From Polyangiales bacterium (GTDB lineage: Bacteria > Myxococcota_A > Polyangia > Polyangiales > Polyangiaceae), in contig JBBRLQ010000011.1 in the NCBI GenBank assembly GCA_038231275.1, positions 128,001 to 192,000 of the forward strand: a stretch of DNA of 64,000 bases, read 5' to 3'. This document shows positions 2,244 to 60,223 of the stretch, piece after piece; the stretch's first letter is position 1, and every line of letters begins with the position of its first letter. The notes under the pieces are model-generated. The model ran no database searches. It saw only the letters and a list, made by a program, of their open reading frames with translations, and was not told the origin of the DNA. The position numbers were made by a program, and so were the translations under genes.

Positions 2244-4373
2244 ATGATCACCATCCTACGAGGCCCGCGCGCGGCCCTCGCTCGATACGGCGTACCGAGC
2301 GATCTGACCATGCGCTGGGACGTCCCGCCGGACGCGCCTGCCTGGGCGGGCATGCGCGCCGTCACCGGACAGCTGCGCGCCGCGCTTGGCGATCAGACCG
2401 TGCAGGAGGCGCTGTCGACGGGCGACGCGGCGGCTCCGGCGGTGACGGTGAGCCTCGCGCTGCGGTCCATCGAGCCGCAGCTATCGGCCGTGCAGAAGCG
2501 CGCGCGCGATCTGGTGTCGGGCGCGACGCTCACGCAGTCGCCTACCGCGCATCCGCGGGGCACGCCGGTCGGGCGCGGGTGGGCGGCGATGTTCGCGCGT
2601 CTCGTCGAAGGGCGACGCGCCCTCATCATTGCCCCCGAGCTCGAACGCATCGACGTGACCACGCTGCGCGCGGCGCGAGCGTTGGTCCGAGGATCGTCCG
2701 GCGCCCTCTCGCTCCTCATCGGCCACGACACGCTGATCGCGCCGGCGGGTCCGTTCGAGTCGTGGCTCCGCAAGCTGAAGCTCCGTGAGGTGGCGCTGCT
2801 CGAGGCCCTGCCGGGCACCCACCTCGAGCGCATCGACTTGCGCAGCGAGCCGCTGATGGCGCGTCGCGGCACCGGCTTCGACGAGCGCGATCCTCGCAAC
2901 GTGGAGACGATGCGCGCGGCGTTCCATGCCTACGCGTTCGACACCGCGCTTCGCCTCGCGCTGGAGCTCTCTCCGAAGCTGGAGGGCGCGGACCTTCGCG
3001 AGGCCCACGCCCTCGCGGCGCTGAGCGCGATGAACCTCGACCCGCACGGCCGGGGCGACGACTTCGGCGTCGGCATGATGGAAGCGGGATTCTTGGGCGC
3101 GCTGGAAGGGGAGACCGATCCCAAGAAGCGCGCGCACTGGAGCTACCAGCTCAGCGTCGTCTTCGCGCGGGCGCGCGGCGAGATCGCGTCCGCGCTCAAG
3201 TACGGCGACCAGGCGGTGAAGGAAGCCGAGGCCGCGAAATCGAGCTACCTCGACGCGTGGGCGCGGCTCGGGCGCGCGCAGGCGAAGGTGATCGCGCAAC
3301 GCCCGGAGGAGGCGAGCGCCGACCTCGAGGCCGCGCTCGTTCGCCTGGACGATCCGGCCGCGCTGCGCGAGACGCCGCAGACGGATCTGGAGACCGCGCG
3401 CGCAGTCGTCGCGAACGAGCGCGCGCGCGTAGCGGCGCTCCTCGGTCGCCGCGACGATCTGCGGCACTACCGTCGCATCGCCGAGGCGCACGCCGTCGCG
3501 GTCAGCCCCGAGGATCGCCCGGGCTACGATTGGCTTGCCCCCGTCGACGACGAGCTGATGCCAACCGCAACGCGCGTCTACCACTCCGCGGAGCTCTCTC
3601 GGGCGCAGGCCGGCTTCGAGCCCGAGGACGAGTGCGCGGCGGCGCGCGCGCTGGCCGGAGCCGAGATGTGTCTCGGGGACGCGCCGGCCGCGAAGGATCA
3701 CCTGCGCGTCGCCACGCGAATCAGCGTCCTCTTGAAGCGGAGCCCCGATGAGATCTTCGCGCTGCAGCTCGCGTCGATCGTCGCCGCCGTGCGCGCCGGC
3801 GCGCATCAGGACGCGGAGCAGGAGCTCAGCATCGTCCGGAGCGATCCCCGCTGCGAGGGCGACGCCGCGCAGGCCGAGGCGCTCGCGATGCTGGCGCTCG
3901 TCGCGGCGAGCCGAAAGGACGTCGCGCTCGTCGTCGAGCGCACGAAGGCGGCGTGCGCGCAGGCGGACCGCAGCCAATCGCCGACGGCGGCGGTGCGCGT
4001 GAAGAAGGCCTCGGCCGACGCGCTCCTTGCAGTCGGCAAACGCACCGAGGCACGCGCGCTCGTCGAAGAGGCGCGAGGTGCGCTGGCGGACACGGCGGCG
4101 GACGACGCGTTCGGGGTGCTCGTCACTTTGCTCGCGGCGGGCGTGGACGACGATGAGGTGGTGGCCGACGCCGTCGCGCACGCGTCCGCGTCGCTCCCGG
4201 AGATGAGCGCGTGGTGGGAGCTCCCGCGCCTCCTTCCGCACGTGAAGCGAACGCTCGCGCGCGCCCCCGGAAAGATCGACGCTGCGGCGCTCACGGCGCT
4301 CATGTCGGCAGCGACCCAGCGGCCTGACTGCGCGGACCTCGTCGCGCAGATCCGCGCGCTCCCGGCCGCCTAA
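2244..4373 (+). CDS. Hypothetical protein, Ala-rich helical/TPR-like, possibly with a degenerate N-terminal NTPase-like region
   Basis: 709-aa ORF following the QEGLA gene; helical repeat-like segments; no intact Walker A. Confidence 0.6.
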   Translation: MITILRGPRAALARYGVPSDLTMRWDVPPDAPAWAGMRAVTGQLRAALGDQTVQEALSTGDAAAPAVTVSLALRSIEPQLSAVQKRARDLVSGATLTQSPTAHPRGTPVGRGWAAMFARLVEGRRALIIAPELERIDVTTLRAARALVRGSSGALSLLIGHDTLIAPAGPFESWLRKLKLREVALLEALPGTHLERIDLRSEPLMARRGTGFDERDPRNVETMRAAFHAYAFDTALRLALELSPKLEGADLREAHALAALSAMNLDPHGRGDDFGVGMMEAGFLGALEGETDPKKRAHWSYQLSVVFARARGEIASALKYGDQAVKEAEAAKSSYLDAWARLGRAQAKVIAQRPEEASADLEAALVRLDDPAALRETPQTDLETARAVVANERARVAALLGRRDDLRHYRRIAEAHAVAVSPEDRPGYDWLAPVDDELMPTATRVYHSAELSRAQAGFEPEDECAAARALAGAEMCLGDAPAAKDHLRVATRISVLLKRSPDEIFALQLASIVAAVRAGAHQDAEQELSIVRSDPRCEGDAAQAEALAMLALVAASRKDVALVVERTKAACAQADRSQSPTAAVRVKKASADALLAVGKRTEARALVEEARGALADTAADDAFGVLVTLLAAGVDDDEVVADAVAHASASLPEMSAWWELPRLLPHVKRTLARAPGKIDAAALTALMSAATQRPDCADLVAQIRALPAA

Positions 4374-4467
4374 GACCCTCGCGCCGGGGGAACGGACGAT
4401 CCGCCGACTGTGGTGGTTGGCGTAGGATTTGTTGGGCTAAGTGTCTCAAACTACAAAATACACACAT

Positions 4468-4483
4468 TGGCACACCAAGTGCG
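4468..4483 (+). promoter_or_regulatory. Candidate sigma54 (-24/-12) promoter of the chitosanase gene
   Basis: TGGCAC-ACCAA-GTGCG (GG 4469-70, N10, GC 4481-82), preceded by an unusually AT-rich tract (~4425-4467). Confidence 0.55.
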
Positions 4484-4496
4484 TATCGAGCGGACC

Positions 4497-5345
4497 ATGC
4501 TTCGACACGCCCTCCTCTTGCTCGTGCCGTTCGTAGTCGCGGCCTGCAGCGGCGCTGCGAACGTGGACGCGCCGTCCGCCGAGGATGAAGCGGCGACCGC
4601 CGAAGCCGCGGCTCACCCGGGATGGCTCGCGGGCGCAAAGAAGCGACGCGCCGAACAGCTGACCAGCCTCTTCGAGAACAGCACGCTCGCGCCGCAGTAC
4701 GACTACATCGAAGCGCTTGGCGACGGGCGCGGGTACACCGCAGGCCGCGCCGGCTTCACGAGCGCCACCGGCGACATGCTCGACGTCGTGAAACGGTACA
4801 CGCACGTCGCCTCCGGCAACCCGCTCGCGCGCTACCTCCCGCGCCTGGAGGTGCTTGCCAAGAACGAGGACGCCTCGATCGTCGGGCTCGAGGGCCTGCC
4901 TGCCGCGTGGGCCGAGGCGTCGAAGGACGCGCGCTTCCGCACGGTGCAGGATCACGTCGTCGACATCACGTACTTCGTCCCTGCGATGCACCACGCGGAC
5001 GCGATCGGCGCGAAGCTGCCTCTCTCTCGAGCCGTCCTCTACGACACGATCATCCAGCACGGCGACGGCGACGATCCCGACGGGCTCCCCGCGCTGCTCG
5101 AGGCCGCGCGTGCCGACGTGAAGGGGACACCGGCCACCGGCGTCGACGAGAAGGTGTGGCTGACCGCTTTCCTGAAGGTTCGACGCGCCGACCTCGCGCA
5201 CGCCTCGGACCCGAGCACGCGCGACGTGTGGGCGGAGTCGGTCGGGCGCGTCGACGTCCTCTCCGAGATCGCCAAGGCCGGAAACTACGCCCTGACCGGG
5301 CCGCTCCACGTGGCGTCGAAGGACTGGAACGCGACGATCCCCTGA
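4497..5345 (+). CDS. csn: Chitosanase, glycoside hydrolase family 46, lipoprotein
   Basis: LTSLFENST (catalytic Glu), YIEALGDGRGYTAGRAGF (catalytic Asp), YDTIIQHG; signal peptide with lipobox VAAC. Confidence 0.9.
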   Translation: MLRHALLLLVPFVVAACSGAANVDAPSAEDEAATAEAAAHPGWLAGAKKRRAEQLTSLFENSTLAPQYDYIEALGDGRGYTAGRAGFTSATGDMLDVVKRYTHVASGNPLARYLPRLEVLAKNEDASIVGLEGLPAAWAEASKDARFRTVQDHVVDITYFVPAMHHADAIGAKLPLSRAVLYDTIIQHGDGDDPDGLPALLEAARADVKGTPATGVDEKVWLTAFLKVRRADLAHASDPSTRDVWAESVGRVDVLSEIAKAGNYALTGPLHVASKDWNATIP

Positions 5346-5381
5346 GGTGCGCGCGACGCCCCGAAAAAAGGGCCGCGTCGC

Positions 5382-6176
5382 CTACCGGCCGTAAAAGTGG
5401 GGCTTGCGCTTGGCAGTGAAGGCGACGAGCCCTTCCTTCGCGTCCGACGACGCGAAGAGCTCCGCTTGCAGCTCGCGCTCGAGGGCGAGGCCTTGCTCGA
5501 GCGGCATTTCGCCGGCCGCCTGCGTGGCGCGCTTGATCCGGCCGACGGCGGCCGCCGCGCGGTTGGGAGGCGTGAACTCGTGCGCGTACGCCATCACCGT
5601 GCGCATGAAGCCTTCGTGCGTGGTCTCCGGGATGATCCTATTCACGAGGCCGAGCTCGTGGGCGCGCTCGACGTTCACCGTCTGCCCCTCGACCATCATC
5701 TCCATCGCCCGCCCCTTGCCGAGGAGGCGCGTGAGGCGTTGGGTGCCGCCGGTCCCGGGGAGGACGCCGAGGCTCACCTCGGGCAGCCCGAGCTGGTAGG
5801 TGCCCGCGCGCGCGACGCGCAGATCACAGGCGAGCGCGACCTCGAGCCCGCCGCCCACGCAGTGACCGTTGATCGCCGCGATGCAAAGCTTGGGCGTGCT
5901 CTCGAAGCGGAGCAGCGTCTCGTTCGCGTGGAGGCAGAAGTAGTATTTGAACGTGCTGTCGGCCTCCTTCAGCATGTTGATGTTGGCGCCGGCGCAGAAG
6001 TACTTGTCGCCGTGCCCGGTGATGACGAGGACGTGCACGTCGTTGTCGAAGCGCGCGTCGAGGATGCACGCGTCGAGCTCCTTGAACATCTCGTGCGTGT
6101 ACGCGTTCACGGGAGGATCGTTCAGCGTGAGGACGGCGACCCCTTTCTCCGTCGAGTAATTGACGAGCGTACCCAT
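5382..6176 (-). CDS. Enoyl-CoA hydratase/isomerase (crotonase) family protein
   Basis: FCAGANI, AAINGHCVGGGLEVALACDLR, LPEVSLGVLPGTGGTQRL; GAGGGG RBS before ATG 6176. Confidence 0.92.
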   Translation of the reverse strand: MGTLVNYSTEKGVAVLTLNDPPVNAYTHEMFKELDACILDARFDNDVHVLVITGHGDKYFCAGANINMLKEADSTFKYYFCLHANETLLRFESTPKLCIAAINGHCVGGGLEVALACDLRVARAGTYQLGLPEVSLGVLPGTGGTQRLTRLLGKGRAMEMMVEGQTVNVERAHELGLVNRIIPETTHEGFMRTVMAYAHEFTPPNRAAAAVGRIKRATQAAGEMPLEQGLALERELQAELFASSDAKEGLVAFTAKRKPHFYGR

Positions 6177-52604: not shown

Positions 52605-53627
52605 TCACTCGCGCCAGAAGAACTTCCAAGGGTTGTGCTTCAGGTCGCGGACCATCTCCTGGAGATCGTCGTAGACCTGCTCGTCCATCAGGAGCGAGCC
52701 GACCGTCCCGTCCCCCTTCTTGATGTGCGCGACGATCGCCTGCGCGTCCGCCGCCGTCGCGTTGGCCCGCGCCGCGAGCTGCGCCACGTCCTCGAGCGCC
52801 TTCTTCAGCTTGGCTTGCTCGTCCGCGCCGCCGACGGTCGCCGAGACGCGGTTCAAGTTCGCCAGCGCCTCGCGCGCGTCCTTGAGCATCGGCCCGCTGT
52901 CCTTCTGAAGGTCAGTGGAGATGCGATCGATGTTGTCGATGGTATGGGCGATCTTGGGGTTGTCGACGTACTTCATCCGCGCGTCGTGCGTGAGCGTGTT
53001 CGCTTCCGCCGACAGCGCTTCGAGGTTCGCCATCGTGCGGTTGATGCGCTCGCGGTTGTCGGTGATGACGCCGTTCAGCCCCTTCAAGAGCCCCGCGGTG
53101 TTGACGGCGATGTCGCTGATCAGCTCGCGGTTGTTCTTGATGCCGGTGACCGTCGTGTCGAGCAGCTCGAACGCCTTCGCGAGGAACAGGTCGAGGCGCG
53201 GCGGATCGATCCCCTTCACGATCGCGCCGTCCTTCAGCACCGGCTTCTGGATGCTCCCCGGTTCGATCGCGAGGAACTGCTCGCCGAGCACGCCTTGCGT
53301 CGTCACGTAGAAATCCGCATCCTCGTGGACCGCCTCGCGCACGCGCTCTTCGACGGACAGCTTCGCGCGCACGAGGGTGCGCCGGTTGGTCTTCGGATCG
53401 ACCGCGCCGTTCATGAAGCGCAGCTCCGACACCTTGCCGACCTTCACGCCGGCGATGCGCACCGGCGCGCCGGACTGGAGGCCGCCCGGGTTGTCGAAGT
53501 CGACGTAGACGGTGTACGTCTTCTCGAAATTCATGCCGCCCATGATGAGGATGAAGGCGGCCAGGATCCCGAGCGACACCAGGATCAAGACGCCGACCTT
53601 GACCTCGATCGATTTCTCTTGGGCCAT
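52605..53627 (-). CDS. mlaD: MCE/MlaD-family protein with long helical extension
   Basis: EVKVG + TM, GGLQSGAPVRIAGVKVGKV, GVLGEQFLAIEPG, ~190-aa helical region, C-terminal DLKHNPW. Confidence 0.92.
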   Translation of the reverse strand: MAQEKSIEVKVGVLILVSLGILAAFILIMGGMNFEKTYTVYVDFDNPGGLQSGAPVRIAGVKVGKVSELRFMNGAVDPKTNRRTLVRAKLSVEERVREAVHEDADFYVTTQGVLGEQFLAIEPGSIQKPVLKDGAIVKGIDPPRLDLFLAKAFELLDTTVTGIKNNRELISDIAVNTAGLLKGLNGVITDNRERINRTMANLEALSAEANTLTHDARMKYVDNPKIAHTIDNIDRISTDLQKDSGPMLKDAREALANLNRVSATVGGADEQAKLKKALEDVAQLAARANATAADAQAIVAHIKKGDGTVGSLLMDEQVYDDLQEMVRDLKHNPWKFFWRE

Positions 53628-53653
53628 GTCCGGCTAGCTTACGGCAAGAGGCG

Positions 53654-54397
53654 TCACGCCTCCATCGGTCCCTGCGCGCGGCCGTGGATGAATTGCTGGA
53701 CGACCCCGTCGTCGGTCGCCTTGAATTCGGCGGGCGTGCCGATCATCTTCACGAGGCCCTGGTAGAGCATGACGATCCGATCGGCGATCGTGAAGATGCT
53801 GACCAGATCGTGGCTCACGACGATGGACGTCACCCCCAGCTTGGTCGACAGCTCCCGAATGAGCTTGTCGACGCGGCGCGCGCTCACCGGATCGAGCGAG
53901 GTGGTGGGCTCGTCGAAGAGGACGTATTTCGGGTCGAGCGTGAGGGCGCGCGCGATGGCGACGCGCTTGCGCATGCCGTCGCCGAGCGCCGGCGGGTAGT
54001 GGTCGCCGAACTCCTGCATGTGCACGATCGCTAGCCGGCGTCGCGCCTCGGCGAGCGCGTCCTTCTGGCTGAGGCCCTTGTGCTTGCGGAGAGGCAGCGC
54101 CACGTTCTCGGCGCAGGTCATCGAGTCGAAGAGCGTCGAGTGCTGGAACACCATCGCGCATTTCTTTCGGATGGGATCCATCTGCTTCTCGCTGAACTGG
54201 CTGATCTCCTCGCCGTCGAGCCAAATTTGACCGTCATCCGGGTAGAGGAGGCCGACGAGGTGCTTGATGAGCACGCTCTTGCCGACGCCCGACGCGCCGA
54301 TGATGAAGAACACCTCGCCCGGCTTCACGTCGAAGCTCACGTCGGTCAGGACCGGCTTGGGGCCGAAGGACTTCTTGATGTTGCGAAACTGGATCAT
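53654..54397 (-). CDS. mlaF: MlaF/Mkl-type ABC ATPase with degenerate signature
   Basis: GASGVGKS, FQ, signature LGDGM, LFDEPTTSLDP, VSHD. Confidence 0.92.
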   Translation of the reverse strand: MIQFRNIKKSFGPKPVLTDVSFDVKPGEVFFIIGASGVGKSVLIKHLVGLLYPDDGQIWLDGEEISQFSEKQMDPIRKKCAMVFQHSTLFDSMTCAENVALPLRKHKGLSQKDALAEARRRLAIVHMQEFGDHYPPALGDGMRKRVAIARALTLDPKYVLFDEPTTSLDPVSARRVDKLIRELSTKLGVTSIVVSHDLVSIFTIADRIVMLYQGLVKMIGTPAEFKATDDGVVQQFIHGRAQGPMEA

Positions 54398-54412
54398 CAA
54401 AGTTGGGCGCCG

Positions 54413-55246
54413 TCAGTTCGGGAAGATCAGGAACGCGGCGCCCGAGATGAAGAAGTTCAAGATGATGATGGCGAGGGACGAGTTGACGACGGCGCGCGTC
54501 GTGGCCCAGCCGACGCCCTCCGAGCCGCCGAAAGTGGAGAGGCCGCAGTAGCCGCTCACGATCGGGATCGCGGCGCCGTACGCGATGCACTTCGTGAGGC
54601 CCGTCGTCAGATCGCCCGCGTCGACGAGGCGCGCGTTGAAGAACGTCTCGGGTGACACGCCGAACGCCACGTACGCGGTGCCGGCGCCCGCGCAGAACGC
54701 CACCGTGCCGGCGAGGACGATGAGCATCGTCGTCATCACGAGGCTGGCGAGGAAACGGGGGACGATCAAAAAATCGATGGGATCGGCCGCGCACATGCGG
54801 AGCGCGTCGACCTGCTCGGTGACGACCATCGAGCCAATTTCGGCGGCGATCCCGGCGCCCACGCGCGTGGCGAGCATGAGCGCGCCGATCGACGCGGCGA
54901 AATCGCGGACGAGGAGCTCGAGGTACGTCGCGCCGAGCAGCGTGAAGTCGGGGACGATGCGCTTGGACTGCAGGCCCGCCTGGTACACCAGGATCATCCC
55001 GATGAAGCCCATCGTGATGCAGAGGAAGAAGAGCGATTTGTTGCCGATCTCGTACATCTGCTGGACGAGCGCGCCCTTCTCGCGCTTGCCGCGGAAGACG
55101 TAATAGAGCGTCCGCACGAAGACCGAGTACATCTCGCGACCGCCGAGGATGAGATCGATCGCGGCGGCGCCGAGGGTGGCGACGAAGCCCGGTTCGGGCG
55201 GCTCCTCCTTCAGGTCGAGGGAGGACGGGGGCGCGGCGTCGGTCAT
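54413..55246 (-). CDS. mlaE: MlaE-family ABC permease
   Basis: ATRVGAGIAAEIGSMVVTEQVDAL, LIVPR, GVGWATTRAVV. Confidence 0.93.
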   Translation of the reverse strand: MTDAAPPSSLDLKEEPPEPGFVATLGAAAIDLILGGREMYSVFVRTLYYVFRGKREKGALVQQMYEIGNKSLFFLCITMGFIGMILVYQAGLQSKRIVPDFTLLGATYLELLVRDFAASIGALMLATRVGAGIAAEIGSMVVTEQVDALRMCAADPIDFLIVPRFLASLVMTTMLIVLAGTVAFCAGAGTAYVAFGVSPETFFNARLVDAGDLTTGLTKCIAYGAAIPIVSGYCGLSTFGGSEGVGWATTRAVVNSSLAIIILNFFISGAAFLIFPN

Positions 55247-55250
55247 CGCG

Positions 55251-56081
55251 TCATCCGAGTAGGAAGCTCACGAGGTAGTCGATCACGAAGACGCCCGCGG
55301 CGCTGGCGACGACCTGCGCGTTGACGGCGCGGCCGACGCCGGGGGCGCCGCCCTTGGTGGCGAGGCCGAAGTAACAGCTCGCGAGCGCGATGAGCAGGCC
55401 GAAGAGGAAGCTCTTGAAGAGGCCGTTCGCGACGTCGCCGAAGCCGAGGTTGAAGATGCCGGTGGTGAGGCCGTTGTAGAAGGTCTGCGGGTCGACCCTG
55501 AGGAGGCCCTGCGCGGTGTACGCGGCGCCGATGAGCGCGATGGCGTCGGCGAAGAGCGTCATCATGAAGAGCGTCATCGTGATCGCGATGAAGCGCGGGA
55601 GGATGAGGAACGAGATGGAGTCGATCGCGAGGACGCGCAGCGCGTCGAGCTGCTCGGTCACCACCATCGTACCGAGCTCGGCCGTGTTGTTTGCGCCGAC
55701 GCGGCCGCTGATCATGAGCGCCGTGAGGAGAGGGGCGATCTCGCGGAGCGTCCCGAAGCCGGCGCCGCCGCCGATCATCGACTCGGCGTTGTAGCGCTTC
55801 ACGATGACCGCGGCTTGGATGACCATGATCGCGCCGGTGAAGACGGCGGTGACCGCGACGATCGGCAGGGATTTTACCCCCATCTTGTAGAGGTTCTTCC
55901 AGAGCTCCTGACCGTCGAACCGGCCGCGCACGAGGCGCGAGAGGCAGCGGCCGAAGAGGATGCCCATGCCGCCCGTCGTCGTCGCGATGCCGAGGAACGC
56001 GGCGCCGACCCGCGCGGCCGTGACCTGGCCGAAGGGGACCTTCCGCTCTTTCGGCTCTTGGGGCGTGCTCGCGGCGGTCAC
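55251..56081 (-). CDS. mlaE: MlaE-family ABC permease (second paralog)
   Basis: REIAPLLTALMISGRVGA, AELGTMVVTEQLDAL, GGAPGVGRAV. Confidence 0.93.
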   Translation of the reverse strand: MTAASTPQEPKERKVPFGQVTAARVGAAFLGIATTTGGMGILFGRCLSRLVRGRFDGQELWKNLYKMGVKSLPIVAVTAVFTGAIMVIQAAVIVKRYNAESMIGGGAGFGTLREIAPLLTALMISGRVGANNTAELGTMVVTEQLDALRVLAIDSISFLILPRFIAITMTLFMMTLFADAIALIGAAYTAQGLLRVDPQTFYNGLTTGIFNLGFGDVANGLFKSFLFGLLIALASCYFGLATKGGAPGVGRAVNAQVVASAAGVFVIDYLVSFLLG

Positions 56082-56094
56082 GGAGGCGGCGATC

Positions 56095-56409
56095 CTACTC
56101 GTCCCGCAGAAGCGCGTCGATCGCCACGAGGGGAGCGCTCGTCGCGACCACGAACGCGACGCTCCACAGGAGGCCGAGGCCCACGCCCGCGAAGCTGCGC
56201 CGCGTGCGCCAGAAGTGCAGCACGATGCCGATCTCCGGGAAGAGGACCATCGCCGAGAGCTTCGTCGACGACGGCCACGCGCGATCGAGCTGCTCGGGGG
56301 CGCGCGCGAAAAGGCGCCGTTCGTCCCACGAGAGAAGCATCAGAGCCGCGGGGATCTTGATCGCCATCGCGAGCACGAGCTCCAGCGCGTCGAGCGTCCC
56401 GTTCTCCAC
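56095..56409 (-). CDS. Small membrane protein (about 3 TM) within the mla/mce operon
   Basis: 104 aa, hydrophobic; 4-nt and 13-nt gaps to its neighbours. Confidence 0.65.
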   Translation of the reverse strand: MENGTLDALELVLAMAIKIPAALMLLSWDERRLFARAPEQLDRAWPSSTKLSAMVLFPEIGIVLHFWRTRRSFAGVGLGLLWSVAFVVATSAPLVAIDALLRDE

Positions 56410-56413
56410 CGAC

Positions 56414-57169
56414 TCAGAGCGGCCCCTCCGTGAGGCCGTGCACGAACTGCTTCACGCGAGGCTCGATGCTCTCGACCGCCTCCTTCGTGGTCCCGTCGAA
56501 GATCAGCTCGCCGCGGTACATCATGCCGACGCGATCGGTGACGGTGACGAGGCGGTCGAGGTCGGACGACACCATGATGACGGTGGCGTTCGCGGCGCGC
56601 TGCTCGGCGCGGAGGAGCTCGAAGATCTTTTGCGACGTCACCGGATCGAGGCCGGCCGCGGGCTCGTCGTAGAGCACGATGGGCGCGTTCGTGATGGTGG
56701 CGCGCGCGACGCCGACGCGCTTCTTCTGTCCGCCGGAGAGGCCGGCAGGCATGCGCGACTCGAAGCCGGACAAGGCGACGCACGCGAGGCGCTCGGCGAC
56801 GCGCGCCTGCACCTCGGTCTCGGGCGGCGCGTAGAGGCGACGGAGCGGGAACGCGATGTTGTCGCCGACGGTGAGGTGATCGAAGAGCGCGTTGTTCTGG
56901 AAGAGCATGCCGAGGCGCTTACGGAGCTCTTGGAGCTTGAGATCGGTCAGCGTCGTCACCTCCTCGCCGGCCACGACGACCGAGCCGGCGTCGGGCCGCA
57001 TCAGGCCCGTCACCATCTTGAGGAGGACGCTCTTGCCGGAGGCGCCGGGGCCGATCAGGCCGTAGAGGCAGCCTTCGGGGACGTGCAGGTTCACGTCGCG
57101 GAGGACGTGCGCGACGCGCTGCGGGCCGCTCACTGGAAACGACTTGGAGACGCCGCGCAGCGTGATCAC
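56414..57169 (-). CDS. mlaF: MlaF/Mkl-type ABC ATPase lacking the switch His
   Basis: GPGASGKS, FQ, LSGGQ, LYDEPAAGLDP, H-loop VSSD; C-terminal QFVHG..EGP. Confidence 0.92.
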   Translation of the reverse strand: MITLRGVSKSFPVSGPQRVAHVLRDVNLHVPEGCLYGLIGPGASGKSVLLKMVTGLMRPDAGSVVVAGEEVTTLTDLKLQELRKRLGMLFQNNALFDHLTVGDNIAFPLRRLYAPPETEVQARVAERLACVALSGFESRMPAGLSGGQKKRVGVARATITNAPIVLYDEPAAGLDPVTSQKIFELLRAEQRAANATVIMVSSDLDRLVTVTDRVGMMYRGELIFDGTTKEAVESIEPRVKQFVHGLTEGPL

Positions 57170-57176
57170 GTGACGA

Positions 57177-57926
57177 TCACCGCGCCGGTTCGGCGCTCCT
57201 GGCACGGAGGAGACGCGTGTAGACTGCAAGTAGCGCCCCGGCCAGGACCGCGATGAGGACGACCATCCCCACGAGGGAGAGCTGGAGCGATCGCAACGAG
57301 CCGCGCGCCACCGTGATGGGGCCGACGTGGGCGAGATCCGCTTCGCCAACGCGCGCGGGGGCGGCGCGCGGCACCGTCACCACCGCCACGTCGACCGGCG
57401 AGAGGCCTCCCACGCCCCCCGCGACGAGACGCTGGATCGCGTCGCTCGTGAGCGGCGGCGTCGAGCCTCGATGCTCGACGAGGACGCTCGCCGACGATTT
57501 CCCGACCGGCGCGTCGCGGAGCGGATCGCGCGTCGGCAGGTTGAGGTGCACGCGCGCCGCCAGCACCCCGTCGACCCCCTCGAGCGTGCGCTCCAGATCT
57601 CCGGCCAGTCCCGCGACCAGCTGCGCGTGCTCTTGCGCCTGGCTGGGCACGAGCGCGCCCTTGTCCATCGTGTCGAGCACGCCGCGCGGCCTCGGGCGGG
57701 GGAGGCCTTCGCCCTGCATCGCGACGAGCGCGCGCGGGACGTCGTCGCGCGCCACGGTCACGCGGATCTGTCCCTCACCGCCCGGATCGATCTCCTTGGT
57801 GGCGTCGATCTTCGCGTGGTCGAGCGCCACGACGATCCTGTTTGCGTCGGTCTCGTCGAGCCCCGCGCCGACCGGCACGCCGCAGCCGGCGAGGAGGACG
57901 GCCAAGAGGAGAGCGCGCGCGCGCAC
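57177..57926 (-). CDS. sctJ: SctJ/YscJ-family (T3SS inner-ring / FliF-like) lipoprotein, orphan
   Basis: Lipobox LAGC; GLDETDANRIV, GLPRP, LVPS, LERTLEGVDGVLAARVHL, SASVL, LVAGGVGGL, C-terminal TM + basic tail. Confidence 0.88.
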   Translation of the reverse strand: MRARALLLAVLLAGCGVPVGAGLDETDANRIVVALDHAKIDATKEIDPGGEGQIRVTVARDDVPRALVAMQGEGLPRPRPRGVLDTMDKGALVPSQAQEHAQLVAGLAGDLERTLEGVDGVLAARVHLNLPTRDPLRDAPVGKSSASVLVEHRGSTPPLTSDAIQRLVAGGVGGLSPVDVAVVTVPRAAPARVGEADLAHVGPITVARGSLRSLQLSLVGMVVLIAVLAGALLAVYTRLLRARSAEPAR

Positions 57927-57927
57927 G

Positions 57928-59811
57928 TCAGTTCCGCCCGTCCAGCACCGCCGGCGCCGGCTTCGGCGTGGGGGGCTTCGTGGCCGGGGGCTTCGGCGTC
58001 GTGGTCGGGGGCTTCGGCGTCGTGGTCGGGGGCTTCGGTGTCGCGGTGCCCTTCGGTCCGGGCGGCGCGGGCGTCGGCGGAGGCGTCGGTCCGGCGGCGG
58101 CCTTCTGGCGCTTCACGACGACGCGCTTCATCTCCTTCATCCAGCGCTCCATGTCGCTGCCCGGCGCGTGGTCCTTGCGGATCGCGGCCTCCATCGGCCA
58201 CCACGCGACGGGGCGATCGTTGATCGCGAAGACGATGTCGTACTGACCTTCTTTGTTCGCGAGCGGCGGCGGCGCCATGCCGTTGGACCCCAGGCACGAC
58301 CACGTGTGCTCGGGGCGGAGCTCCGGCTTGAAGCAGCCGTCGCTGCGGCCGACGATGTTGCCGGCGTCATCGAGGACGAAAGCGCTGATGCTCACGTTGG
58401 TGCCCGACCACCCGCGGGTGCCGCGCGCGAACCAGGTGTAACCGACGCGGCGCGGGTAGCTCCGCTCGGCCCACGCCGCGCGGATGCCCATGAGCGTGAG
58501 CGGATCGTCGTTGCCCATCATCGCCACAACGATGTCGACGTCGGGATCGCCGTCGTCGACCACGTCGGCGGAGTGCTCGTCGGCGAGCTCGTCGTCGTCG
58601 TCCTCGAGCTGCAGCGAGACCTGCGACTGGCCGATCTCTTTCCCGCCGCTTTTCAAAGTCACGAGGTACTTTCCGTGCGTCTTGGCAGTGAAGCGGAGGT
58701 TGCCGCTCACGAACGCGACGCGCTGGTGCTCGCCCACGCGAACGGTGGACGGCCACGACGCGACTACGTTTCCGTTCGGATCCTTCGCCTCGAACTCGAC
58801 GTCGGTCGGGCCCTTCGGAAGCCCGAAGACCATCGCCACCGCGGGGATGCGCGTGCCGTCCTGCTTGGCCTCGATGAGGTGGGCGTTGCCCATGATGTGG
58901 GCGACCTGCTGATCGTTCGGATCGCGCGAGACGCTCAGGCGGTCGGTGATGAAGAGATCCGCGTACACCTTGCCGCGGTGCTTCTGCGCGTAATCGGCGA
59001 GCACCTTCTGGACGGCCGGCGGGTGGCCGGCCTGCACTTCGCGCACCTCCGACGCGGCGACCGCGCTCGAGATGGGGGCGATGCCGCCGCTGCCGGTGAA
59101 GAGGATGGCGTGGTTGACGCCGACGACGTGCGGCTTGCCGGAGGCGTCCATGGTCACGACCGGCCCGCCCGAGAAGCCCGGGTACACGGCGCCGTCGAAC
59201 AGCACGAGGCGCGCGCCGAACATGTCGACCTGTCCCGACGCGATGCCCTCGCTCATGCCCCACGACAGCGCCCAGTAGCCGTGCCCGGTGTGGCCGAGCG
59301 CCCAAACCGGCTCGCCGACGCGGATCTCTTTGGCGTCGATCGGCAATGGAGGCACGCCCGTGAGCGGCTGCTTCGGCCTGAGGATGGCGACGTCACGCAC
59401 TTCGTCGATGCGCACGACCTCGGCGTCGACGGTCTGGCCGGTGCGCGTGGTGACCTTCAGCCGATCGGGACGGAAGACGACGTGCGCGGCGGTGACGATC
59501 TGTCCGCCCTCGACCATGAAGCCGGTGCCGTGCGGCGTCGGATCTTTGCGGAGCGAGACGTCGATGACGCGCTTGGGCGCCTTGGCCTCGTCGCCCAGCG
59601 TCCGTTCGATCTCCTTGATCTCCTCCTCCCGATCGGCGCGATCGTCGTTCAGGATCGCGACGACCGACGGCGCGGTGGCCTCGAAGACGGCGAGAGCGGT
59701 CGGCTTGGGAGGCGAAGCAGGCACGCTCGGCGCTCCTCCGCATGAAATGCCGACGAGTCCAGTCAGCACGAACGAAAGCAGCTTGGCGGTACTAAGATGC
59801 GGGGATTTCAT
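57928..59811 (-). CDS. Trypsin-like (S1C) serine protease lipoprotein with uncharacterised C-terminal domains
   Basis: GTGF, TAAHV, DVAIL, PGFSGGP triad; lipobox GISC; no PDZ motif seen; Pro/Thr/Lys tail. Confidence 0.88.
   Translation of the reverse strand: MKSPHLSTAKLLSFVLTGLVGISCGGAPSVPASPPKPTALAVFEATAPSVVAILNDDRADREEEIKEIERTLGDEAKAPKRVIDVSLRKDPTPHGTGFMVEGGQIVTAAHVVFRPDRLKVTTRTGQTVDAEVVRIDEVRDVAILRPKQPLTGVPPLPIDAKEIRVGEPVWALGHTGHGYWALSWGMSEGIASGQVDMFGARLVLFDGAVYPGFSGGPVVTMDASGKPHVVGVNHAILFTGSGGIAPISSAVAASEVREVQAGHPPAVQKVLADYAQKHRGKVYADLFITDRLSVSRDPNDQQVAHIMGNAHLIEAKQDGTRIPAVAMVFGLPKGPTDVEFEAKDPNGNVVASWPSTVRVGEHQRVAFVSGNLRFTAKTHGKYLVTLKSGGKEIGQSQVSLQLEDDDDELADEHSADVVDDGDPDVDIVVAMMGNDDPLTLMGIRAAWAERSYPRRVGYTWFARGTRGWSGTNVSISAFVLDDAGNIVGRSDGCFKPELRPEHTWSCLGSNGMAPPPLANKEGQYDIVFAINDRPVAWWPMEAAIRKDHAPGSDMERWMKEMKRVVVKRQKAAAGPTPPPTPAPPGPKGTATPKPPTTTPKPPTTTPKPPATKPPTPKPAPAVLDGRN
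57986..58040. repeat. 21-bp tandem repeat encoding PKPPTTT in the protease tail
   Basis: GGGGGCTTCGGCGTCGTGGTC x2 plus a partial third copy. Confidence 0.85.
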
Positions 59812-60223
59812 GGCGCGCCCACTTGGGTAGCCGAGATCGCGGCCTTTTCGCAACGCGCCTTTGTCGGGAAGACCAGGGTGGCATAGACTTCATGCGGAGG
59901 GGGGCGACGACCGGACCAGGCCCCCCGACGACGAGCCGCCGCCCCCCCGGGCGCGCCGAAGTTGGGGCCTCCCGGGGCCGCCGATCGCGGAGAAAGCCGC
60001 CCGGTGTTGCGGCCGGCCCCGACGGGTGTTATCAGGCTTAATAGGGCTGGCGCTCAACTGAGCCCGTCCGCGCGCCCTGTCGGGTGCGCTCGGCGGCCCC
60101 ACCGCCCCAGCCGACTGCTCTTTTGCCAGCCCTGGGCCAGCCTTTGGCCCCCCTCGTACTTCCCATTGCGCGTTTTTCTGGCGCAAGGAAAGGCGCGCGG
60201 ACTCCGCGTAGCACCCCCACCTC

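Follow-up and report, generated by a model that had tools for sequence, protein, structure and literature searches.

An MCE operon of Polyangiales with two MlaF-type ATPases whose complementary motif defects suggest a heterodimeric motor with unlike ATP sites

We analyzed a stretch of 64,000 nucleotides from a Polyangiales bacterium (GenBank assembly GCA_038231275.1, contig JBBRLQ010000011.1, positions 128,001 to 192,000 of the forward strand). This stretch, hereafter called the window, has a G+C content of about 70%. Seven genes on its minus strand occupy positions 52605-57926 and are spaced 4 to 26 nt apart. In operon order, they encode an SctJ-like lipoprotein, the ATP-binding cassette (ABC) ATPase MlaF-B (FB), a 104-aa open reading frame (ORF), the permease paralogues MlaE1 (E1) and MlaE2 (E2), the ABC ATPase MlaF-A (FA), and a MlaD-like MCE protein (D). 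The transporter encoded by FB, E1, E2, FA, and D is the subject of this report, and its genes and ATPase motifs (the latter placed by translated motif coordinates unless stated otherwise) are as follows.

56414..57169, minus strand: MlaF-B, ABC ATPase of 251 aa with a GTG start (PF00005, 107.9 bits)
57029-57052, minus strand: Walker A of FB, GPGASGKS
56726..56740, minus strand: signature of FB, LSGGQ, canonical
56660-56677, minus strand: Walker B of FB, VLYDEP
56561..56572, minus strand: switch (H-loop) region of FB, VSSD, with Ser for His (translation and PDB alignment)
55251..56081, minus strand: MlaE1, permease paralogue of 276 aa that adjoins FB (PF02405, 217.8 bits; TIGR00056, 192.9 bits)
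54413..55246, minus strand: MlaE2, permease paralogue of 277 aa that adjoins FA (PF02405, 180.5 bits)
53654..54397, minus strand: MlaF-A, ABC ATPase of 247 aa with an ATG start (PF00005, 116.4 bits)
54275-54298, minus strand: Walker A of FA, GASGVGKS
53972..53986, minus strand: signature of FA, LGDGM, with Asp for the signature Gly (consensus LSGG[QM]; translation and PDB alignment)
53906-53923, minus strand: Walker B of FA, VLFDEP
53807-53818, minus strand: switch region of FA, VSHD, His intact
52605..53627, minus strand: MlaD-like MCE protein of 340 aa (PF02470, 61.7 bits, cut-off 25.1)

A preliminary description of this DNA had placed the two ATPase genes at exactly these positions and had claimed two MlaE paralogues, and both assignments hold. 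E1 and E2 exceed the Pfam cut-off for PF02405 (22.5 bits), and both genes lie between the ATPase genes. In the protein encoded directly downstream of FA, residues 36-124 make up the MCE domain, and about 215 more residues follow; its NCBIfam matches (TIGR00996, 87 bits; TIGR04430, 81.5 bits) are both under the cut-off. The top NCBIfam match of FA is NF008809 (MlaF) at 186 bits, and FB scores 164.4 bits against the same model. Neither reaches the equivalog cut-off of 441, which sets both ATPases apart from MlaFEDB proper. The 247-aa form of FA corresponds to entry P0001 in the public protein collection, and an alternative TTG at 54400, given by the ORF lister, would lengthen it by one Met. With MlaE permeases, an encoded MCE protein, and ATPases of the MlaF/MceG branch, the operon belongs to the MCE/Mla-type (type VIII) ABC transporters.

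The two ATPases deviate from the consensus in different places. In FA, the Walker A motif, Q-loop, Walker B Glu, and switch His are all intact, and the signature alone deviates. In FB, the Walker A motif, Q-loop, and Walker B motif are intact and the signature is canonical, and Ser occupies the position of the switch His. Motif positions were checked by phmmer alignment to solved PDB chains. Acinetobacter baumannii MlaF (7d06) places lsggm over lgdgm of FA and vshd over vshd, and the vssd of FB aligns with vthn of a chain in 8fed and with ithe of MetN (3dhw). The best PDB matches of FA are MlaF chains (E = 4e-49), and that of FB is the chain in 8fed (E = 2e-47). We take 8fed-8fef to be structures of the mycobacterial Mce1/Mce4 transporters, with MceG as the matching chain. 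In the alignment to Escherichia coli MlaF (269 aa), both FA and FB come to their end at residue 252. The motif states given for each ATPase in the preliminary description are thus borne out by translation and by alignment to solved chains alike.

Relatives of FA were collected with one genome per species; 229 were found, and the best 80 were kept as close loci. They include Labilithrix, Sorangium, Polyangium, Chondromyces, and metagenome-assembled genomes (MAGs) of Polyangiaceae. An FA search of the protein collection listed relatives above 80% identity only, and the depth of the comparison came from whole-genome searches. LGDGM, VLFDEP, and VSHD are present in the FA of all 80 close loci. FB lies within 6 kb of FA in 24 of them, and LSGGQ occurs together with VSSD in 23/23 linked FB proteins with readable motif columns; the 24th match (L085), a fragment without the motif columns, was left out of this count. 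Because the motif pattern is conserved in relatives, a chance origin can be regarded as excluded on sequence grounds.

The same pattern extends across the class. We searched 251 genomes with FA and FB and fetched 40 regions (45-82% identity), 35 of which carry both ATPases. In all 35 two-ATPase regions, FB has Ser at the His position and FA keeps its His. The FA signature is non-canonical in 34 of the 35, with variants across the class that include LGDGM, LGEGM, IGDGM, LSDGM, LSSGM, VGDGI, and others. The check proposed in the preliminary description, that the signature defect of FA and the catalytic-residue loss of FB be conserved together, came out in its favor, and more clearly than foreseen, as the two go together in 35/35 two-gene loci, with one FA reading LSGGV. 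The latter protein (L133:2860-3594, genome G139) is the sole FA orthologue with a canonical-looking signature. Since its sister L134 has LGDGM, the LSGGV of L133 looks like a reversion. FB orthologues outside this lineage often have the Met-ending signature LSGGM, which is typical of Mla systems (PMC7367683; this and the other papers cited here are quoted from excerpts).

In other classes of the phylum, which for the compared genomes is presumably Myxococcota, the same operon was found in 12 loci. There, FA keeps [IF]GDG[LM] and its His. FB retains His in these loci, and its Walker B motif reads DDP for DEP, so that the catalytic Glu is replaced by Asp. Judged from the motifs, this is a different lesion that would fall in the same composite ATP site.

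For the final tally, orthologues were defined by score alone and distinct sequences were counted. Walker A GK, the Q-loop Gln, DEP, and the switch His are present in 143/143 FA sequences, and the signature is non-canonical in 142. At its third position, Asp is found in 137, Pro in three, and Glu, Ser, and Gly in one each. All 92 FB sequences have xSGGx, Walker A GK, the Q-loop Gln, and the Walker B Asp. Among them, 74 combine DEP with Ser, 12 combine DDP with His, and six, all from Polyangia, carry both lesions (DDP and Ser). None has both the catalytic Glu and the switch His, and Ser stands at the switch position in 80/92. Taken together, the motif tallies of FA and FB would confine all defects to one composite ATP site and leave the other site always canonical. 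FB is the less conserved of the two proteins, with a mean column identity of 60% versus 70% for FA over the same 57 loci. Regardless, its Walker A Gly and Lys, Q-loop Gln, signature SGG, and D-loop are invariant.

A tree of the ATPases was computed with FastTree from 142 distinct rows, after omission of two long-branch non-Mla rows that had earlier fallen inside FB. FA (63 rows) and FB (66 rows) each form one clade, with Shimodaira-Hasegawa-like (SH-like) support of 99, apart from 13 canonical paralogues. On this tree, a single change accounts for the His/Ser state of FB, versus three for the Glu/Asp state. Likewise, E1 (79 rows) and E2 (75 rows) each form one clade with SH-like support of 100, a clean split that is partly expected, as the E1 and E2 labels are best tblastn matches. 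By these trees, each of the four proteins FA, FB, E1, and E2 corresponds to a single old clade. The simplest reading of the old split between E1 and E2 would be an E1E2-FAFB core that is heteromeric throughout.

The genes are also kept in a fixed arrangement. The order FB, E1, E2, FA was found in 68 of 75 loci with both ATPases, a set that includes some loci overlapping the same place. D follows FA in 43 of these 75, and five loci have FB, FA, and D in succession with the MlaE genes elsewhere. In some genomes the operon is divided. FB is unlinked from FA but present in all five genomes searched for it (Sorangium, Polyangium, Chondromyces, and one MAG), where it has LSGGQ and VSSD in 5/5 cases; in So ce56, the two genes lie about 338 kb apart. 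In one family (f7), FB-E1 and E2-FA-D are on different contigs in 3/3 genomes, the FA signature is LGPGL, and FB has LSGGQ, DDP, and Ser. In another family (f15), FB-E1-E2 is separate from FA in 5/5 genomes.

Two candidate counter-examples were examined and rejected. Family f7 had appeared to be a single-ATPase case with LGPGL that would speak against a heterodimer, and a MlaE search located FB-E1 elsewhere in 3/3 of its genomes. Similarly, FB was matched in just 83/251 genomes at E <= 1e-62, as if many genomes had FA only. This is a threshold effect, as FB diverges faster. In 14 genomes with an FA match and no FB match at this threshold, FB is in the locus in eight, elsewhere in four (family f15), and in two the contig ended before FB. 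In the fifth f15 genome, tested alongside, FB-E1-E2 is elsewhere as well.

A complex of FA and FB with two ATP and two Mg was also modelled, in three runs, from alignments A1 and A2. The model score was 0.69 (0.72, 0.68, and 0.69 in the individual runs), whereas the best of three controls scored 0.00. The score mark is one that 116/157 solved complexes reach, versus 2/215 mismatched pairs. At least 80% of contacts were shared between runs, and the partner predicted local distance difference test (pLDDT) value was at least 89. In the model, the two proteins pack head to tail in the usual sandwich. FB 143-148, with S145, G146, and G147 invariant throughout alignment A2, is placed opposite Walker A (33-41), Glu163, and His196 of FA. 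In turn, FB Walker A (39-47), Glu169, and Ser202 are placed opposite FA 137-142, where G141 is invariant and D140 is at least 90% conserved in alignment A1. The model contacts and the sequence tallies therefore agree with the preliminary description that both defects would fall in one composite site.

We conclude that the operon most probably (we would give this reading a probability of roughly 0.8) encodes a heteromeric MCE/Mla-type ABC transporter in which FA and FB pair head to tail as a heterodimer whose two ATP sites differ. The preliminary description had predicted such a heterodimer as part of an E1E2F1F2 transporter, and the comparison of relatives, through co-conserved motifs, divided operons, and separate paralogue clades, supports that prediction. 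Complementary motif defects that are kept phylum-wide suggest that just one ATP site of the motor is fully functional. Two unlike nucleotide-binding domains (NBDs) whose deviations appear to gather in one composite site, with the other site canonical, constitute the pairing of a consensus and a degenerate site.

The transporter might work as follows. One copy each of E1, E2, FB, and FA would form the core under a MlaD ring, with FB docking on E1 and FA on E2. This docking is suggested by gene adjacency, including the FB-E1 and E2-FA-D blocks of family f7. Site 1 would consist of the Walker A motif, Walker B Glu, and switch His of FA with the LSGG signature of FB; it would be fully canonical and probably the only site to hydrolyze ATP. 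Site 2 would be built from the Walker A and B motifs of FB and the xGDGx of FA, and would lack the switch His in this lineage or the catalytic Glu in other classes; across from it, the signature Gly would be replaced by Asp. Because the Walker A motif, Q-loop, and Walker B Asp of FB are fully conserved, site 2 is predicted still to bind nucleotide, with slow or no hydrolysis. By analogy with TM287/288, it may act as a latch that holds the ATPases in contact between cycles. As FA and FB lack a C-terminal extension and the operon lacks a STAS gene, such a latch would be a reasonable role for site 2.

Several observations weigh against this reading or limit it. Locus L116 (genome G076; 3259-5551) has a single MlaE gene between the ATPases, in the order FB, E1, FA, D. 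At L133, FA reads LSGGV next to an FB that still has VSSD. The division of family f7 into FB-E1 and E2-FA-D would be compatible with two half-systems as well. The complex model does not discriminate the heterodimer from homodimers, and because MlaF dimers have already been solved, its passing score may reflect likeness to them. Site 2 may retain some activity, given that FB keeps its catalytic Glu here (DEP with Ser). Finally, the near-invariant Asp of FA (137/143) resembles selection for a role, and "degenerate" may under-describe site 2.

The f7 division also provides a footing for the idea that the genes encode two separate homodimeric half-systems, two FB with two E1 and two FA with two E2, which act in parallel or share a MlaD ring and in which the motif deviations are tolerated quirks. 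Precedent comes from Francisella, which has two independent Mla pathways with their own mlaF genes (PMC3312209). However, pairing FB with itself would leave both sites short of His or Glu, and pairing FA with itself would put xGDGx into both. The fetched 3.6-kb loci of the f7 FB-E1 pair contain no MCE gene, and the other divisions cut elsewhere: f15 separates FB-E1-E2 from FA, in Sorangium FB is set apart from the rest of the genes, and five loci have FB, FA, and D with MlaE elsewhere. Two contig ends excepted, no tested genome has a single ATPase. We therefore consider half-systems very unlikely. A decaying or regulatory FB pseudo-ATPase with no fixed place in a transporter driven by an FA homodimer, like that of E. 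coli MlaF, would account for the faster evolution of FB, but it is barely credible. FB is intact in every examined genome with its Walker A, Q-loop, signature, and D-loop residues invariant, its canonical signature is precisely the element that FA is missing, and it heads the operon in 68/75 loci.

A different question is whether FA and FB form a heterodimer whose site 2 is not crippled. The Asp could compensate catalytically in trans, or the site could be nucleotide-free with the Asp closing the interface in place of the gamma-phosphate. The third signature position is acidic in all but a few FA sequences (the 137 with Asp and one more with Glu), which is tighter than expected of a decaying motif. 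Moreover, the Asp of FA stays, although the lesion in FB may be His to Ser, Glu to Asp, or both. The 92/92 conservation of the Walker A motif, Q-loop, and Walker B Asp in FB places nucleotide and Mg binding under selection, which favors a catalytic or ATP-binding form of this idea over the nucleotide-free one. On the other hand, we know of no precedent for a signature-motif carboxylate as catalytic base. The simpler expectation for a negative charge by the gamma-phosphate would be a site that closes less firmly, and three f7 FA proteins have the non-acidic Pro at this position. On balance, an uncrippled site 2 appears unlikely, and we favor the heterodimer with one working and one degenerate site. 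Even so, the conservation of the xGDGx Asp, in contrast to the usual drift of degenerate signatures, hints at a specific role. A more ambitious proposal, which we regard as possible but rather doubtful, is that FB-E1-E2-FA is the ancestral architecture of an MCE branch spanning Myxococcota and that the Asp of FA was selected because it makes site 2 a permanent, nucleotide-dependent latch or a trans-complemented catalytic site. Such a latch would replace the stabilization that MlaB and the C-terminal handshake provide for E. coli MlaF, and the motor would fire at one site.

Two further genes of the seven lie outside the set analyzed above.

57177..57926, minus strand: SctJ/YscJ-family lipoprotein gene (PF01514, 84.6 bits; TIGR02544, 129.7 bits, cut-off of 161.95 not reached)
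56095..56409, minus strand: hydrophobic ORF of 104 aa between FB and E1 (ORF listing)

The SctJ-like gene, an apparent orphan of the inner-membrane-ring lipoprotein family, ends 7 nt before the start of FB and is found beside FB in 28/83 FB loci, in nearer relatives only. It looks to be co-transcribed with the transporter and lies outside the conserved core. Directly upstream of it (57928-59853, minus strand) is a gene for a 641-aa trypsin-like peptidase (PF13365) with a repetitive C-terminal tail rich in Pro, Thr, and Lys. The 104-aa ORF begins immediately after the stop codon of FB, and 13 nt separate its end from the start of E1. It has no Pfam or NCBIfam family match, was seen by tblastn in 13/80 close loci at 35-78% identity, and was undetected in all 40 more distant loci. 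It is possibly a lineage-specific accessory membrane subunit, and its membership in the transporter is uncertain. No STAS family was found by Pfam among the 10 ORFs scanned around the operon. Many relatives have a second, far more divergent MCE gene (21-31% identity to D) that adjoins the main MlaD gene (L120, L122-L125, L127-L129, L136, L144, L179, L180, L184, L185, L188-L190, and others), and the window has one MCE gene.

The same genome carries three further MlaE loci as well as canonical MlaF-like paralogues, and this operon is thus an additional system and not the only one of the cell. MlaC has one match elsewhere in the genome (61.5 bits), which could belong to any of the three other MlaE loci. 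No match to MlaA was obtained in a search of this genome, which is 94% complete. A paralogous system was also observed in other classes (L155:3811-6021 and L161:4432-6643), where a single, fully canonical ATPase gene (LSGGM, DEP, His) comes after a pair of divergent MlaE-like genes that share about 30% identity with E1. By its sequence, it presumably combines a heteromeric permease with a homodimeric ATPase.

To survey MlaF-like proteins more broadly, we took the 150 best proteins from a search of representatives, a set in which the FA family appears as a few fragmentary cluster heads and 28 proteins were left unparsed by the motif pattern. Among the 150, 103 are canonical and 19 are non-canonical in at least one domain (four fused proteins, five FA-family fragments, and ten others). 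The fused MlaF-MlaF proteins (P0121-P0124, about 550 aa) have LSGGM in NBD1 and a degenerate signature in NBD2 (ISSGQ, VSAGE, ISNGE), with Glu and His in both domains. The fused gene at one metagenome locus (L178:5947-7599) adjoins PBP2, RodA, and MscS genes and not MlaE. The ten others (P0132, P0154, P0159, P0167, P0196, P0225, P0236, P0239, P0255, and P0261) have signatures such as IGDSI, LSIGE, LSYGM, LSFAV, LSYGE, LSAGE, and LSAGQ, and nine of them are single-domain MlaF-like proteins substituted at signature position 3. Asymmetric MlaF pairs may be widespread beyond the phylum.

In bacteria with two membranes, lipids are carried from one membrane to the other by Mla/MCE transporters, whose mechanism and transport direction are under debate. 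If our reading is true, each ATP site could be mutated separately without artificial concatemers, and the system would show whether one hydrolysis per cycle suffices for an MCE transporter. An asymmetric motor on an asymmetric E1/E2 permease would offer a handle on ATP coupling and on the direction of lipid movement. The alternative lesions of FB, namely His to Ser, Glu to Asp, or both, would always strike the same site and would thus be a clean case of selection on a site and not on a residue. Furthermore, the principle of consensus and degenerate sites would reach a type VIII machine with separate subunits, beyond the type IV exporters.

Among the closest known systems are the MlaFEDB complexes of E. 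coli, A. baumannii, and Pseudomonas aeruginosa (6xbd, 7d06, and 7ch8), with which this system shares a MlaF-like ATPase, a MlaE permease, and the MCE-domain protein MlaD. As far as is known, the other solved Mla systems have a homodimeric MlaF. In E. coli, a single MlaF and a single MlaE are each present in two copies, together with the STAS protein MlaB (PMC7367683), in agreement with the preliminary description, which had set the predicted heterodimer against a homodimeric E. coli MlaF. In that report, the stability of the MlaF dimer is attributed to a C-terminal handshake of about 25 aa and to MlaB (PMC7367683). The Polyangiales operon, unlike MlaFEDB of E. coli, has two paralogues each of the permease and of the ATPase, the latter with complementary defects. 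Its ATPases are without the C-terminal extension, it has no STAS gene, and its MlaD-like protein is 340 aa long. The mycobacterial Mce1/Mce4 systems (YrbEA/YrbEB with MceG) are likewise MCE transporters with two different MlaE-family permeases. They have a homodimeric MceG ATPase and six different MCE proteins, whereas two ATPases and one MCE gene are found here. In Francisella, mlaF1 and mlaF2 serve two independent pathways (PMC3312209), and the excerpts of a phylogenomic Mla survey describe MlaDE duplications in Gracilicutes and in those passages mention no two-ATPase pattern (PMC10665443). A full-text literature search, outside of which lie subscription-only papers, found no report of a heteromeric MlaF or of a degenerate site in an MCE transporter.

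One degenerate ATP site is also a property of TAP1/2 and CFTR, and the logic is the same in TM287/288 and BmrCD, where deviations of the Walker B or switch motif and of the signature fall in one composite site and the other is consensus. In the degenerate site of TM287/288, which keeps the NBDs from separating fully, the Walker B motif carries a non-canonical Asp and the signature deviates (PMC5216877); the Glu to Asp change of FB in other classes is the same as that in this Walker B motif. In the type IV exporters TM287/288 and BmrCD, the membrane domain and the NBD are fused, whereas FA and FB are stand-alone NBDs (247 and 251 aa) encoded with MlaE-family permeases, in a type VIII system that would have a periplasmic MCE ring and a core of four individual polypeptides. 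In addition, the signature lesion is a conserved Asp here, versus a variable residue in the heterodimeric exporters. Heterodimeric ABC transporters with a degenerate site are thus already known, and what is new, and well supported by the sequence comparisons, is the predicted presence of such an arrangement in an MCE system.

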